A stretch of DNA of 64,000 nucleotides from Candidatus Latescibacterota bacterium (GCA_965200315.1 OZ241362.1:2848001-2912000); one strand, 5' to 3'; shown: positions 6,761 through 55,865, counted from the first letter of the stretch. The notes: generated by a model from the sequence alone, not told the origin. Translations and numbers: made by a program.

Positions 6761-7336
6761 ATGGACTTTCGCATCGAAGAAGAAAGCCTCGACGGCCTGT
6801 CCGAATACGGCCAAGTGCCCATCGCCCTTGAGGTAAAAAGCCGCTTGCGCGTCGAACTCGTCACCAACGGCCTCGGGGGAATCCGACTGGTCGAAGAACC
6901 CGTCGATCCTCCCTACATCAAAAACTACGACCACTCCGGCGGCCCCGAACGCTGGACTCGGAGAACGTGGGACCTCTCGCGGTGGATTGTGCTCTCCGCA
7001 TACAGGGAACAGGAGCGCATCGGCGGGGCTATTGTCGCCTTTCACGGCGAGGGCTTAGGCTACTGCGAAGGGCGCGAAGACCTCGCTGGCCTCTGGGATA
7101 TCCGCGTGCGATCCGAATATCAAGGACGAGGCGTGGGCCAAGCGCTCTTCCAACGCGCCGAGACCTGCGCCAAGAAGCGGGGCTGCACTCAGTTCAAGAT
7201 CGAAACCCAAAACATCAACGTCCCCGCCTGCCGTTTCTACGCCCGCATGGGTGCCAAACTCGGTCACGTCCATCTCTACGCCTACCGTACCGAGGGCCTA
7301 GACGAGGTGCAACTGACCTGGTACAAGGATCTGTAG
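6761..7336 (+). CDS. GNAT family N-acetyltransferase (streptothricin acetyltransferase-like)
   Basis: DIRVRSEYQGRGVG acetyl-CoA motif; KIETQNINVPACRFY. Confidence 0.85.
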   Translation: MDFRIEEESLDGLSEYGQVPIALEVKSRLRVELVTNGLGGIRLVEEPVDPPYIKNYDHSGGPERWTRRTWDLSRWIVLSAYREQERIGGAIVAFHGEGLGYCEGREDLAGLWDIRVRSEYQGRGVGQALFQRAETCAKKRGCTQFKIETQNINVPACRFYARMGAKLGHVHLYAYRTEGLDEVQLTWYKDL

Positions 7337-7470
7337 CGGCCGCAGACGCTGACGGTCAAAAAGCGCGAGGCGATTTGCTTCCAGTCGCGTTGGGTCTTTT
7401 GCGGCAACCCAAGCCGCGGGCGAAGAATCATTTGAGTACAATTCAGGTTTTATACCGAGGAGAGCCAAGT

Positions 7471-8649
7471 ATGACCGATCTTTTCGATAGAGTGCGCGAA
7501 GACTTCCCGCGAGCGCGGACCATGGCGTACTTCGACAACGCTTCGTCGCATCCGATCAGTGCACACTCGGCCGCGGCCCTGCACCGGTACGTCGATTGGG
7601 TCGCCCACGAGGTGGGGGAGCCGTGGTGGCCGGCTTGGGCACCGCCGCGAGACCAAGCCAAGGCCCTATTTGCCCGGCTCATCAACGCCGAGCCCGGAGA
7701 AATCGCCTTTGCACGCAGCACGGTGGAATCGGAGAGCAACATCCTCAACGGCTTGAGGGATCACCTAGCCGGCGGCAATGTGGTGATGTCTGATCTGAAC
7801 TTCAGCCCCTGCATATCCAGCTACAAGTTTCGCGAGCAGCAAGGTCTTGATGTGCGGATCGTCAAGAGCAGTCTGTCGCCAGTATTGGCGACACATCGCA
7901 ACTGGCAAATCGACATGACCGCCATGGAAGACGCAGTCGACAGCAATACCCGGCTGATTTCGGTGGCATTGGTGTCAAACGTCAACGGGTATGTCGCAGA
8001 TGTCGCGGCGATAAGCAAGCTGGCTCACGACAACGGCGCGTATCTGTATGTCGATATCATGCAGGCCGCGGGCGGCGTTCCCATCGACGTCAAGGCGATG
8101 GGCATCGACTTTGCGGCTTGTTCGACGTTCAAGTGGCTGATGGGCGTCAAGGGGTTTGGGTTTCTGTACGTTCGCTCTGATCTGCAGATCGACGTGCTCA
8201 AACCGTCGCAGCCCACGGGTGGTGTGAGACTCAACTATCCCCCCTGGGTGGAAGAGCCCGATTCGGCCAGTGAGGAGATATCGTTTTCACCCCCCACCGG
8301 AGTCGGTGCCTACGAGGTCAGTTACCCCTCGTACGAAGGAGTCGTGTGCGCCCAAGAGAGCCTGCAGTACATCCTGCGCCTTGGAGTCGATAGAATCCGC
8401 AACCACGCGAGGGACCTGACCGATCGCTTGCAGGAGGAGCTGCCGAAGAGGGGGTACAAATCGATCACGCCGCAGGGGAACGAAAGCCCCATACTCTCCT
8501 TCGTAGCGCCACACCCCGAAGCTGTCTTGGCCAGTTGTAGGAGTGCCAATGTTCATGTGGCGATGCGTTTCGGCAACAAGATGCGCCTCTCGCCCTCGGT
8601 GTACAACAACCACGAAGATATCGATCGCCTCCTCGAAGCCCTGCCTTAG
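7471..8649 (+). CDS. Aminotransferase class V / cysteine desulfurase-like PLP enzyme
   Basis: YFDNAS, YVDIMQAAG, ACSTFKWLMG (PLP Lys), RLSPSVYN. Start MTDLFD after GAGGAG. Carries a 9-aa insertion (see findings). Confidence 0.85.
   Translation: MTDLFDRVREDFPRARTMAYFDNASSHPISAHSAAALHRYVDWVAHEVGEPWWPAWAPPRDQAKALFARLINAEPGEIAFARSTVESESNILNGLRDHLAGGNVVMSDLNFSPCISSYKFREQQGLDVRIVKSSLSPVLATHRNWQIDMTAMEDAVDSNTRLISVALVSNVNGYVADVAAISKLAHDNGAYLYVDIMQAAGGVPIDVKAMGIDFAACSTFKWLMGVKGFGFLYVRSDLQIDVLKPSQPTGGVRLNYPPWVEEPDSASEEISFSPPTGVGAYEVSYPSYEGVVCAQESLQYILRLGVDRIRNHARDLTDRLQEELPKRGYKSITPQGNESPILSFVAPHPEAVLASCRSANVHVAMRFGNKMRLSPSVYNNHEDIDRLLEALP
7867..7893 (+). repeat. 27-nt palindromic repeat, copy A (in frame inside the aminotransferase)
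   Basis: AGCAGTCTGTCGCCAGTATTGGCGACA, an 8-bp stem with a 4-nt loop; related copies at 40461-40487 and 46024-46050. Confidence 0.75.
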
Positions 8650-35013: not shown

Positions 35014-36123
35014 ATGATCCATACCGCAGAAGCACTGGCTGAACTTGTCGAGCGCGCTCTAGACTGCGAGCGCGTTGCCCTAGACACGGAATTCGTTTGG
35101 AACCGCACCTATTATCCCAAGTTGGGGGTGATCCAACTGGCTCTCGCCAGCGACGATTGCTACCTGATCGACCCGGTGGCGATTGCGGATCTTTCGCCTC
35201 TTGGTGCCCTATTAGAGCACGCGGAGGTCGAACTGATTCTCCACGACGCCCAACAGGACTTGGCTATTTTGCGCCGGGCCACGGGAGCTTTTCCGCGCAA
35301 TGTCTTCGACACCCGCTGCGCGGCCGGGCTTGCCAATATGAGCTCTACCTCTTCGCTGGCCGAACTCTTGGAGCAAACCCTCGGCGTGGTCCTCGACAAA
35401 ACCGAGACGCTCACCAATTGGGTCCGCCGCCCGCTCTCGGAGGACCAGTTGGCGTACGCCATTGAGGATGTGCGCTATCTGCACGAGGTGCGCAAGATGT
35501 TGCAGGCTCGCGTCGAAGAAATTGGTCGCAGCACTTGGCTGATCGAGGAAATGGCCGCGTACGACGACCCGCGGCTATACGAGGAGCGAGACCCACGCGA
35601 GCAATTCACGCGGATTAAGGGCACGGGCGGCGCTTCCCGACGCGAGTTGGCCATCCTCCGCGAGTTGGCCGCTTGGCGCGAAGAGGAAGCCCAGCGACGC
35701 GACCGGCCGCGCAATCACGTGTTGCCGGACGAAGTCCTCGTGTTACTGGCCCGGCGCAAACCCCAATCGATGGAGGAACTAGGTCGGCTCCACGCACTCG
35801 GTAAGCGCCGCTCTGACCGCTACCTGCTCGAACCGATCCGCCGTGGCTTGGCCGTCCCCGACGAGGAGTGCCCTCCCCGACCACGACGACCACAGATCAA
35901 AAAAGAGGTCGTCGAATGCAAACTCGCCCGGTCCATGGATTGCTTGCGCCGCCAAAGCGATGCAGCGCAGATTGACGCACCTTTTGTTGCGGCCCGCGCC
36001 GAAGTGCGCAACCTAGTCCTCGACGCGGGTGCTGCCACGCCCGAAGATCATCGCCTCCTGCGCGGGTGGCGGCGCGATTTTATTGGCGAAGCCTTATACG
36101 GCATCGCTACCTGCCCCGAGTGA
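35014..36123 (+). CDS. rnd: Ribonuclease D
   Basis: ALDTEF...TYYP.L..IQ, H...QDL, FDT, TNW..RPLS..QL.YA..DV; HRDC domain WRE..A...DRPR..VL.D. Confidence 0.92.
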   Translation: MIHTAEALAELVERALDCERVALDTEFVWNRTYYPKLGVIQLALASDDCYLIDPVAIADLSPLGALLEHAEVELILHDAQQDLAILRRATGAFPRNVFDTRCAAGLANMSSTSSLAELLEQTLGVVLDKTETLTNWVRRPLSEDQLAYAIEDVRYLHEVRKMLQARVEEIGRSTWLIEEMAAYDDPRLYEERDPREQFTRIKGTGGASRRELAILRELAAWREEEAQRRDRPRNHVLPDEVLVLLARRKPQSMEELGRLHALGKRRSDRYLLEPIRRGLAVPDEECPPRPRRPQIKKEVVECKLARSMDCLRRQSDAAQIDAPFVAARAEVRNLVLDAGAATPEDHRLLRGWRRDFIGEALYGIATCPE

Positions 36124-53352: not shown

Positions 53353-55068
53353 TCAAGGATAGTGATAACCTTCATTGTTGATATTAAATGGCCATATCTT
53401 CAACATAAGTCTGAGTCGAATAAGGGCACCTTTATCCAGTTCTCCTATATCTAGTTTCCTTTTTAACGATGGATCATCAAAATCCAATCTTTTACTCGCC
53501 GTCAAAAACCCTTCTTTAAAAATGATGTGGGTCAGGTGGCTTGCGATTAAATAATATCCTTCATTTGAAGGATGCAGGTGTTCAACAATCATTGGTTTGC
53601 CAATTACATTTTTGGGATCGTAATCTTGGAATGTAGTTTCAAGATCTGCTAATATGATGTCTGCTTCCTTGGCAACATTTTTTATGGTTTCGTTTACCTC
53701 TGACGGGGCTCTGATCGGTAAAATATCCAAGTCTCTTGCTCTTGTGAAGGATCGTTTGGCTTTATCTTGATATCCCCGAGCAAGGTAAACATGACCCAGA
53801 TCAAAATGAGTTTGGGCGTGATCTGGGAAAAGTTCAATTGCTGTTTGGTAGATACGTTCCGCCTCTTCCAGATGATTTTGTTCAAATGCAGCCTTACCAT
53901 TCTTTAATAACTGTTGCCATTGGGTAAGATCGAGGGAAGGAGGCGGTGGTTCTGAATCAAATGGGCGCCAATCTCGAAGATTGGAAACAATTGTCCCTAA
54001 AATCACAGGGATTTGATGGCGCTTTGCAGTAGAGATAATCTCGTGGAGATTTCCCCTGAAATTCTCAATAGCTTGCTCTCGTAGAATTTGTTCTCGCAGT
54101 TTGGCCTCGTCCTTCATCATCTGCTTGACCTTAGCTCTTGTGGGTTCGGTGCCATGGGCCATAGCATTGCGAAGCTCACGAAGGTTTTTGTATGAATTCG
54201 ACATTCTCCCCTTCGCCTTCTCATATTCATCCTTTGCGTCTTGGCGATCCGCGTACCGTGCGGGATCTCCTCCACGCTGGGAGACGAGATAGGTCACAAA
54301 GGCTTCTTGTGCGTAAATCGTGGCTCGGAGATAGTCGCGCCTTTTTAGGTAATCCTCGGCGAGTTGGCTCTGCCGGCGCTGTGGAGTCTTTTTGTGACTC
54401 CAAGCCAATCGGTCTTGAAGAGTTAACTGAAACAGGCGAGCGACCCCAGTGAAGGGGTCAGATTTAAGGGCATCGTCGATACTCTTGATCTTTTCTTTGG
54501 CAAGAGATTCTTGAGAGGTTCGTTCAAAAAAGGCAGCCTTGTGCATGGGAGCCGCCAAACTAAGGTTCGCATTTGGCAGCAACTCCGTAAAAACTCCGTA
54601 GTCGCCGGTATGTTCAAACTGACTCAAGGATCGGACCCAGTCGAACAGGTGCAACAGTCCCTTCAGATCATACACCGTTCCGGTCTTGGTGTCTGGGTCG
54701 TAAAAGCCATACCAGAGTGCTTGCAACGTAATGTTCTGAACGGCTTGGAGATAAACTCCCGCCACCATCGCAATCATGGGCAAATGGCGAAAGGCGTGAG
54801 AAACGTCCAAGGAAAGCTCGGCGACGTCCTTGGTTGCCTTCGCCATAGTGTGCAGAACGTCGATTCCTAGGTTAACCACTTCTACCGTTTTATCCACGTT
54901 GGAACGTTTTAATAATTCGTGAAGCAGCTTGGGAAACGGCCCTCTTGTCGTCGATCCCCCAAGACAAAAGATGCGAAAATCCTTTTCGGATTTCTGCTGT
55001 TTCATGCTTATCTTGGGAATTAGATTTTTAAGCATTGGATTATTAATTGAATAATATTTTCGGTACAA
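53353..55068 (-). CDS. Chimeric ORF: SGNH-hydrolase/TPR protein carrying an in-frame Csx1/TM1812-type CARF-HEPN segment
   Basis: SGNH RIFCLGGSTT and EVVNLG; insert with LDVSHAFRHLP and LRNAMAHG; then SNLRDW.PF, a TPR pair, RARDLD....RA, EHLHP...GY. Confidence 0.7.
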   Translation of the reverse strand: MYRKYYSINNPMLKNLIPKISMKQQKSEKDFRIFCLGGSTTRGPFPKLLHELLKRSNVDKTVEVVNLGIDVLHTMAKATKDVAELSLDVSHAFRHLPMIAMVAGVYLQAVQNITLQALWYGFYDPDTKTGTVYDLKGLLHLFDWVRSLSQFEHTGDYGVFTELLPNANLSLAAPMHKAAFFERTSQESLAKEKIKSIDDALKSDPFTGVARLFQLTLQDRLAWSHKKTPQRRQSQLAEDYLKRRDYLRATIYAQEAFVTYLVSQRGGDPARYADRQDAKDEYEKAKGRMSNSYKNLRELRNAMAHGTEPTRAKVKQMMKDEAKLREQILREQAIENFRGNLHEIISTAKRHQIPVILGTIVSNLRDWRPFDSEPPPPSLDLTQWQQLLKNGKAAFEQNHLEEAERIYQTAIELFPDHAQTHFDLGHVYLARGYQDKAKRSFTRARDLDILPIRAPSEVNETIKNVAKEADIILADLETTFQDYDPKNVIGKPMIVEHLHPSNEGYYLIASHLTHIIFKEGFLTASKRLDFDDPSLKRKLDIGELDKGALIRLRLMLKIWPFNINNEGYHYP

Positions 55069-55127
55069 CTCCTGATTAAGTTGGTAAGAGGCTGACAGTC
55101 GGACGAACGGATGAGAGACTGATTGCA

Positions 55128-55865
55128 GGCAACGGGGAGAACACGACTAACTACGTGCTCTTCACCTTGGAACGGGACTATCCGGGTCTTGGCAGGCTGA
55201 AGATCTACGAGAACTTCAGAATCGCGAAAGACGACATTGAGAACGATCTTCGCCAGTGGAACGAGTTCGAGAGGCGTAACGTTCCAACCGTCGATCCCCT
55301 AGCGGCTCAGGACACGTGGATAAACTCTACGTTCATGAGCTTCAAGTACACCAAGATCGAGGATGTGAATTTCGTGAGTAAGTTCAAATACGATCGCTGG
55401 CACCAGAACGAACGACAGCCCGATCTGCGCGAGGACTATACCTTCTTCGGTCTCATCAACAAGGTGGACCTCGAGCGCAAGATCGCCTATGTCGATCTCA
55501 TGCCGAGAGTAAAGAACGAGCTCAGGCTGGAGGCCCCGGCGCTCAAGTCTGATCCCAAGCGCAGGGAAGACACGCTGCAACTCTCCCTGCTGGCGCGATG
55601 GCCGCTGTTTTCTTCTTCCACCATGCAGGCCGGTGTGGAGTACACGATCTTCAACCAACTCCGCAAATCGGAGACCGCGGTCAAGGAGGGACTGCTCGAC
55701 GATTTTACCGAGATCGTCGGAGCGATACAGTTCTCGAACGTCACCAACTACCTAGGTTACCGGCTGTTGACGAACATGGGTATGAGATTGACCAGAAGAT
55801 CGCTAGATGACGAGACCGAGACGGGCAGTGTGTCCTTTGCCACGGTGTACGCCGGTCTAGATTAG
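55128..55865 (+). pseudogene. C-terminal fragment of a large outer-membrane/secreted hypothetical protein
   Basis: Beta-strand-rich ORF ending SFATVYAGLD; no signal peptide or RBS; frame begins at a junction near 55128. Confidence 0.5.

Follow-up and report, generated by a model that had tools for sequence, protein, structure and literature searches.

A segregating chimeric open reading frame of csx1 and SGNH-TPR parts in a sponge-associated Candidatus Latescibacterota bacterium: most likely a pseudogene left by illegitimate recombination

The window analysed here is a stretch of 64,000 nt from the genome of a Candidatus Latescibacterota bacterium (GCA_965200315.1, OZ241362.1:2848001-2912000). 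The genome itself, designated G000 below, is a single contig of 5.36 Mb with 59% GC, and is 94.7% complete by marker count. On the minus strand of the window is an ORF in which a piece of a csx1 gene lies between two parts of an SGNH-TPR gene; the public gene call for it is P0001, with 560 aa. The features referred to in the text are as follows.

53353..55068 (-): chimeric ORF, 571 codons from TTG or 560 from ATG at 55035; SGNH 5' remnant, then csx1 fragment, then SGNH-TPR 3' part
53353..54085 (-): native SGNH-TPR 3' part, fusion aa 329-571, with TPR repeats and SGNH block V (EHLHP)
54086..54863 (-): csx1 copy, 778 nt, parent aa 129-385 of 397; last third of CARF with a DxTHG-type motif, helical linker, and HEPN with RNAMAH
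54864..55088 (-): SGNH-TPR 5' remnant, approximately codons 57-139 of the 477-aa orthologue, with SGNH block I (GGSTT)
54085/54086: junction A, csx1 end to SGNH 3' part; 0 nt microhomology
54863/54864: junction B, SGNH 5' remnant to csx1; 1 nt microhomology, a shared T
55088/55089 (no strand): junction C, the deletion junction, SGNH 5' remnant to the interior of a 902-aa gene; blunt, 0 nt microhomology, ~8.2 kb lost relative to seven congeners
55089..55865 (+): C-terminal remnant of the 902-aa gene, cut by the ~8.2-kb deletion; the listed ORF is 55155-55865
L001:9958-18213 (G000:C1:3003958-3012213), outside the window: complete type III-B cmr operon

Family searches assign fusion residues 1-69 and 329-571 to an SGNH/GDSL-TPR protein and residues 69-328 to a Csx1-type CARF-HEPN protein. 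In the middle section, TIGR02221 (cas_TM1812) matches aa 60-164 with an E value of 1.5e-23, and only positions 111-217 of the 218 in the model are covered; the DxTHG motif model TIGR02549 matches aa 86-110 (E 6e-8, 32.5 bits vs. a cut-off of 21); and the PADLOC CARF_HEPN model PDLC01825 matches aa 69-328 at positions 120-373 of 382 (E 7.9e-83). The HEPN R-x4-H motif, RNAMAH, is intact, and R357, N358, and H362 (parent numbering) are invariant in 38/38 aligned homologues. In the SGNH-TPR sections, TPR are found at aa 391-447, and Lipase_GDSL matches aa 455-512 with the C-terminal end of the model only (positions 149-208 of 208); Lipase_GDSL_2 reaches 20.9 bits, under its cut-off of 32.9.

An earlier, sequence-only reading of this DNA had described a Csx1-type CARF-HEPN segment with an RxxxxH motif, fused in frame into an AT-richer SGNH-TPR protein whose GGSTT and EHLHP blocks remain on both sides, with the first part of the CARF domain and the N-terminal anchor of the host protein missing. 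This description is borne out by the matches above and on the remaining points: both internal junctions (A and B) are in frame; the SGNH parts have 37-44% GC, the insert ~51%, and the flanks 60-68%; the Csx1 profile matches start mid-model; and, in an alignment with seven intact homologues of 476-494 aa, the fusion keeps both blocks and is without some 80 N-terminal amino acids, including the hydrophobic anchor. The window was also said to hold neither cas genes nor an array, and none of its 53 other long ORFs matches a Cas model at E<=1e-5, nor is there a CRISPR array within it. The PADLOC scan gave two further matches in the window, neither with partner defence genes nearby: one to a DndA/SspA-like protein, probably a cysteine desulfurase (6967-8649, +), and one to the C-terminal part of a BrxH-like helicase model (35014-36123, +).

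For the SGNH portion, we take block I to carry the Ser, block II the Gly, block III the Asn, and block V the Asp/His. Of the four blocks that an SGNH protein requires, I (GGSTT) and V (EHLHP) are present; where the csx1 piece sits in the fusion, the homologues have ~100 residues including MGHNE, and with the replacement of this stretch blocks II and III are gone. The flanks of the fusion show 74-87% protein identity to the SGNH-TPR homologues and are in syntenic position, placing the gene at the site of this orthologue group without the full-length, membrane-anchored 476-494-aa form. The fusion is thus like the SGNH/GDSL-TPR proteins of the genus in its synteny, its blocks I and V, and its TPR repeats, and unlike them in having neither blocks II and III, nor the N-terminal anchor, nor the native start.

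A DNA search covering 30 relatives, of which 18 belong to the genus, recovers the locus as it would have been before the csx1 piece arrived. In six of the 30 (G013, G012, G010, G014, G008, and G007), the left flank and the SGNH 3' part (53353..54085) are contiguous, at 87-91% identity; 297 unmatched nt follow, and then a 227-229-nt SGNH 5' block, 93-96% identical to 54864..55088, the remnant in which native start and membrane anchor are absent. The right flank (88-93% identity) is reached after 7.9-8.9 kb in seven of the 30, these six and G006. The csx1 piece is matched by none of the 30. At the corresponding site the G013 gene is intact, with 477 aa, full Lipase_GDSL_2 and TPR matches, and a GC content of 38-48% (L010:3240-4673). 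The SGNH-TPR gene thus has 37-48% GC, vs. ~59% for genomes of the genus, and occupies the same site in at least six congeners. Since the intact G013 gene is low in GC as well, this composition is an old trait of the SGNH-TPR gene in the genus, and the gene a resident, compositionally odd one rather than a fresh import.

The junctions were set by base-level comparison. At the insert, 301 nt of the SGNH-TPR gene, including catalytic blocks II and III, are exchanged for the 778 nt of csx1; with a net gain of 477 nt (159 codons), the reading frame remains open. The chance of its staying open is about 1 in 9. Microhomology had been claimed for junction A from the peptides LREQI and LREQA, but these correspond to two adjacent imperfect 12-mers (10/12 alike), both of which are retained, and the crossover overlap is 0 nt. 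The ~8.2-kb deletion starts 225 nt from the insert. It took the SGNH-TPR start with the first ~60-70 codons, the anchor, and the upstream region, as well as whole genes of 160, 333, 939, and 608 aa, two of which have CHU_C/FlgD_ig ends, and ~640 codons of the 902-aa gene. The genome retains paralogues of the deleted genes at 1.733-1.743 Mb, with 61-74% identity, and has intact paralogues of the 902-aa gene elsewhere.

The insert itself has a close counterpart 101 kb away on the same strand: window positions 54086-54863 are 98.7% identical to G000:C1:3003998-3004769 over 778/772 nt, with five substitutions and one 6-nt in-frame insertion in the insert. The counterpart is the 3' two-thirds of a 397-aa csx1 gene, referred to here as the parent, whose product matches TIGR02221 over its full length (E 2.9e-46, model 2-217 of 218). 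The parent closes the type III-B operon listed above (cmr1, cas10/cmr2, cmr3, cmr4, cmr5, cmr6, csx16, csx1). The term “orphan” applied to the segment by the sequence-only reading is therefore apt within the window, where the fusion is not beside a type III cas10 locus, and wrong for the genome, in which the suggested search for cas10 leads to this operon; it is the parent copy and not the chimera that belongs to it. No CRISPR array was found near the cmr operon within the 20 kb examined. The operon has 52-62% GC, and, outside G000, a close csx1 occurs in 1/30 genomes of the genus; the operon may be an island acquired recently, using arrays located elsewhere.

An AlphaFold (AF2) model of the parent Csx1 has a pLDDT of 91.7, and a fold search with it matches Csx1-Crn2 (8y6z, E 1e-11), which is the structurally closest solved relative, Sulfolobus islandicus Csx1 (6qzt), and several Csm6 structures; a sequence search of the parent against solved structures gave nothing relevant (best E 0.8). 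Like the Csx1/Csm6-type CARF-HEPN RNases (TIGR02221/TM1812; 8y6z, 6qzt), the insert has DxTHG-type and R-x4-H motifs, and it has 95-97% protein identity to the family member in its own genome. Unlike them, it is without the first ~128 residues and the last 12, is embedded in another gene, and has no cas gene in the window.

The fragment could conceivably have come by transformation or transfer from another strain's csx1 allele, instead of being copied from the resident gene. The 6-nt insertion that distinguishes it is also carried by a 10.6-kb parent-locus contig from one public sequencing run (X5, see below), so this indel is polymorphic in the parent csx1 too, and csx1 alleles of this kind circulate. 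However, the X5 indel would fit gene conversion or ordinary polymorphism equally well. Among 31 genomes of the genus, matches to the parent Csx1 at E<=1e-10 are confined to four, the two close copies are in G000 only, and the nearest orthologue (in G033) is 67% identical at the protein level. An origin in another strain seems rather improbable against this background, and the resulting chimera would be the same either way. The substitutions include one at parent position 179, where at least 90% of 38 homologues have Tyr; the insert also has Tyr and the resident csx1 has His, so the insert is not simply a decaying copy. Both states are present in population contigs at this residue (the site equivalent to G000:C1:3004711).

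Could the chimera have been made by an assembler joining csx1 reads to SGNH-TPR reads, as one of the alternatives in the sequence-only reading would have it? Three GC regimes within 2 kb and an insert that repeats another locus might raise this suspicion. However, the copy differs from the parent by the substitutions and indel described above, and a 2.2-kb stretch over the locus is present, with large shares of its words, in runs of two studies. Contigs from four runs were compared; these are built from 31-letter words, and show that the junction words exist rather than proving a single molecule with all three. In X3, a sponge metagenome from the second study, the flanks have a depth of 156-163, and 59-60-nt contigs centred on the junctions have depths of 79.5 (A), 89.3 (B), and 80.5 (C). 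Ancestral forms are present in the same run: a joint of 54085 to 54863 at depth 48, and, past 55088, an 8.3-kb contig into unlike sequence at depth 60.3. In X1, which is probably the source run, a 19-kb contig passes junction A into the insert, a 255-nt contig runs from the insert to 55088, and junction C has a depth of 18 vs. 4.2 for the undeleted form. Loose contig ends at 54086 and 54863 correspond to the flanks of the parent csx1, and in X5 one loose end at 54085 is intact SGNH sequence. In X3 the rearranged allele thus makes up approximately half of the depth at the locus, and in X1 four fifths of it, or nearly all at the junction words. The equal junction depths in X3 suggest that the insert and the ~8-kb deletion are on one molecule; the minor undeleted form in X1, in contigs of 31-letter words, cannot be phased with the insert. 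With all three junctions covered by contigs from two studies, an assembly artefact is hardly credible: the chimera is a true DNA allele, and coexists with the ancestral one.

This allele was seen nowhere beyond its own lineage. A protein search gave 575 matches at E<=0.001 among 8000 scored candidates; among the 120 proteins listed, coverage of the query exceeds 56% for the window's own protein only, the others being SGNH-TPR proteins of 366-573 aa (up to 87% identity) or Csx1 proteins of ~390-400 aa. A 40-nt word across junction A has no matches in either metagenome_contigs or genome_contigs. The search for the same fusion in other genomes, one of the checks proposed earlier, was accordingly negative in the protein listing, in both contig collections, and in the 31 genus genomes.

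Chimeric pseudogenes and complex structural variants are products of illegitimate recombination, by filler-DNA capture or serial template switching. The present locus resembles such variants, as they are generally known, in its blunt or 1-nt joints, its templated, distant, same-strand insert, the adjoining deletion, and the coexistence of the ancestral allele, which is found both in relatives and in the same population; the coding region is truncated, and the junctions are homology-free. It is unlike them in that both internal joints keep the frame, leaving a long ORF with a complete nuclease domain, and in that Ku was not found. Of the two origins offered by the sequence-only reading, a recombination chimera is the one that agrees with a near-identical copy of the genome's own csx1, an intact gene in congeners, and junctions of this type.

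The ancestral locus carried a low-GC, membrane-anchored 477-aa SGNH-TPR gene of the kind still intact in congeners. Two changes lead from it to the present one: the mid-gene exchange of 301 nt for the 778-nt copy of the resident csx1, and the deletion beginning 225 nt from it, which took the start of the gene, its upstream region, and four and a half neighbour genes. Three homology-free joints within 1 kb and a templated insert would be consistent with a single complex repair or a brief series of repairs. Since the joints are blunt or 1 nt, the route may have been either end joining that captured filler DNA or a series of template switches at a stalled fork, which are not distinguishable here. 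Ku-dependent (classical) NHEJ was considered for the blunt joints and is ruled against: Ku (PF02735) was not found in the one-contig, 94.7% complete genome, so a Ku-independent route is more likely, and a scar of classical NHEJ in particular is argued against. CRISPR self-targeting was considered as a cause of the breaks and rejected. When 410 spacers from six arrays were compared to the loci, including the undeleted DNA of relatives (L001-L012), the longest match was 20 nt with two mismatches, or 15 nt when exact, and no E value was below 0.002.

At the protein level, the first question is what the truncated Csx1 fragment could still do. The ~128 parent residues missing from its start include CARF strands β1-β3 (residues 3-9, 51-56, and 112-117 of the parent model, all preceding residue 129, where the insert begins) and the first (N-terminal) ligand-binding motif. 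The fusion has the DxTHG motif and the HEPN R-x4-6-H motif, and does not have the complete, Rossmann-like CARF domain for cyclic oligoadenylate (cOA). In Csx1-Crn2, according to its authors (PMC11317161), cA4 in the CARF domain draws two R-x4-6-H motifs together, and the CARF-deleted protein has almost no RNase activity at 10x concentration; by analogy, a constitutively active toxin would not be expected here. Because SGNH blocks II and III, the anchor, and CARF β1-β3 with the first ligand-binding motif are missing, the product, if made, would be expected to act neither as an esterase nor as an RNase gated by cOA.

The structure prediction suggested earlier was run for the fusion as well as the parent. 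For the fusion, the AF2 model has a pLDDT of 72.3 and a pTM of 0.48; pLDDT is <50 at both junctions and over block V, and ~75-91 in the helical (HTH)/HEPN part. The alignment behind this model (A3) mixes two families, and its low pTM is weak evidence of misfolding. A consensus scan for sigma70-like sites gave three in 2.7 kb vs. 2.4 expected, with none lying upstream of the ORF on the strand that encodes it. Two RNA-labelled libraries have contigs over parts of the locus, with little or no cover of the 5' remnant; one of them (X6, record 24) includes a contig over junction A with a depth of 8.9. Contigs of up to 123 kb occur in these libraries, however, so DNA is present in them.

Taking these results together, the ORF is, with a probability of roughly 80%, a recent, lineage-specific, polymorphic scar that illegitimate recombination left in a sponge-associated bacterium, and most likely a chimeric pseudogene, with the ancestral allele still segregating beside it. 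Several observations count against a pseudogene: the open frame of 571 codons with its in-frame junctions and complete HEPN domain, the Tyr kept by the insert at parent position 179, the junction A contig from an RNA-labelled library (which also holds DNA), by which the locus may be transcribed, and the depth of the allele in X3 and X1, too high for a strongly deleterious variant and compatible with a favoured one.

The same observations might instead point to an expressed, functional gene, either a cOA-free, TPR-tethered HEPN RNase or a CARF-less Csx1 partner modulating the type III-B system; in the second form, it would pair with the resident Csx1 via the retained HTH/HEPN dimer surfaces. 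In favour of this are the open frame, the intact HEPN motif, the fair confidence with which the helical/HEPN region is predicted, and the high frequency of the allele in two studies; there are also three perfectly self-matching spacers in the genome, and with these a means of damping collateral RNase activity could be useful. However, the deletion took the native start, anchor, and upstream region, nothing promoter-like was found upstream, the CARF core is missing, the SGNH fold is without blocks II and III, and the fusion is found in this lineage only. The CARF-deleted Csx1-Crn2 is reported to be nearly inactive rather than constitutively active, and the RNA-labelled libraries contain DNA. 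A functional gene is on balance unlikely. The more specific proposal of the sequence-only reading, a new TPR-gated HEPN defence architecture uncoupled from type III CRISPR, is not supported, in view of the uniqueness of the fusion, the loss of start, anchor, upstream region, and ~128 CARF residues, and the presence of a type III-B system in the genome.

One version of a functional product can be put more concretely, although it is very unlikely. A fortuitous promoter might allow a CARF-less HTH-HEPN protein on a TPR scaffold to be made, which could pair with the resident Csx1 and damp or re-target the collateral RNA cleavage of the type III-B system. If so, such a chimera could be tolerated or favoured given the self-matching spacers, which would explain an allele at half or more of the population, and it would represent a newborn regulator of cOA signalling, still polymorphic. 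More generally, expression of the ORF would make it an instance of gene birth, with part of a defence gene as the raw material.

As a chimeric pseudogene, the reading preferred here, the locus serves mainly as a warning: what looks like a striking “new domain architecture”, intact nuclease motif included, can turn out to be a repair scar, the proof in this case coming from the genome's own paralogue, the intact gene of congeners, and population contigs. It would also be a clear case from nature, within a symbiont population of uncultured type, of a complex rearrangement that still segregates alongside its ancestral allele, with a templated insert from 101 kb away, two deletions, and blunt joints in a genome in which Ku was not found.

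The six CRISPR arrays of this genome have 12, 7, 246, 109, 27, and 17 repeats. The self-matching spacers are all in the 246-repeat array (G000:C1:129154-147659), and match the chromosome perfectly over 36-38 nt at G000:C1:477096-477133, 4657264-4657299, and 213121-213157. The genes concerned are ordinary-looking ones: a 282-aa gene with a weak iolE-like match, an iron-type alcohol dehydrogenase, and a TonB-dependent receptor. Adjoining the same array is a second CRISPR-associated cluster with Cas1 (L016, G000:C1:118001-130000), which includes a CRISPR-associated primase-polymerase of 643 aa with a TPR region at its N terminus, a protein of 581 aa that matches the TM1812 CARF model at positions 100-218 only, and an ORF of 178 aa whose match to Cas10/Csm1 is limited to the first ~146 positions of the model.
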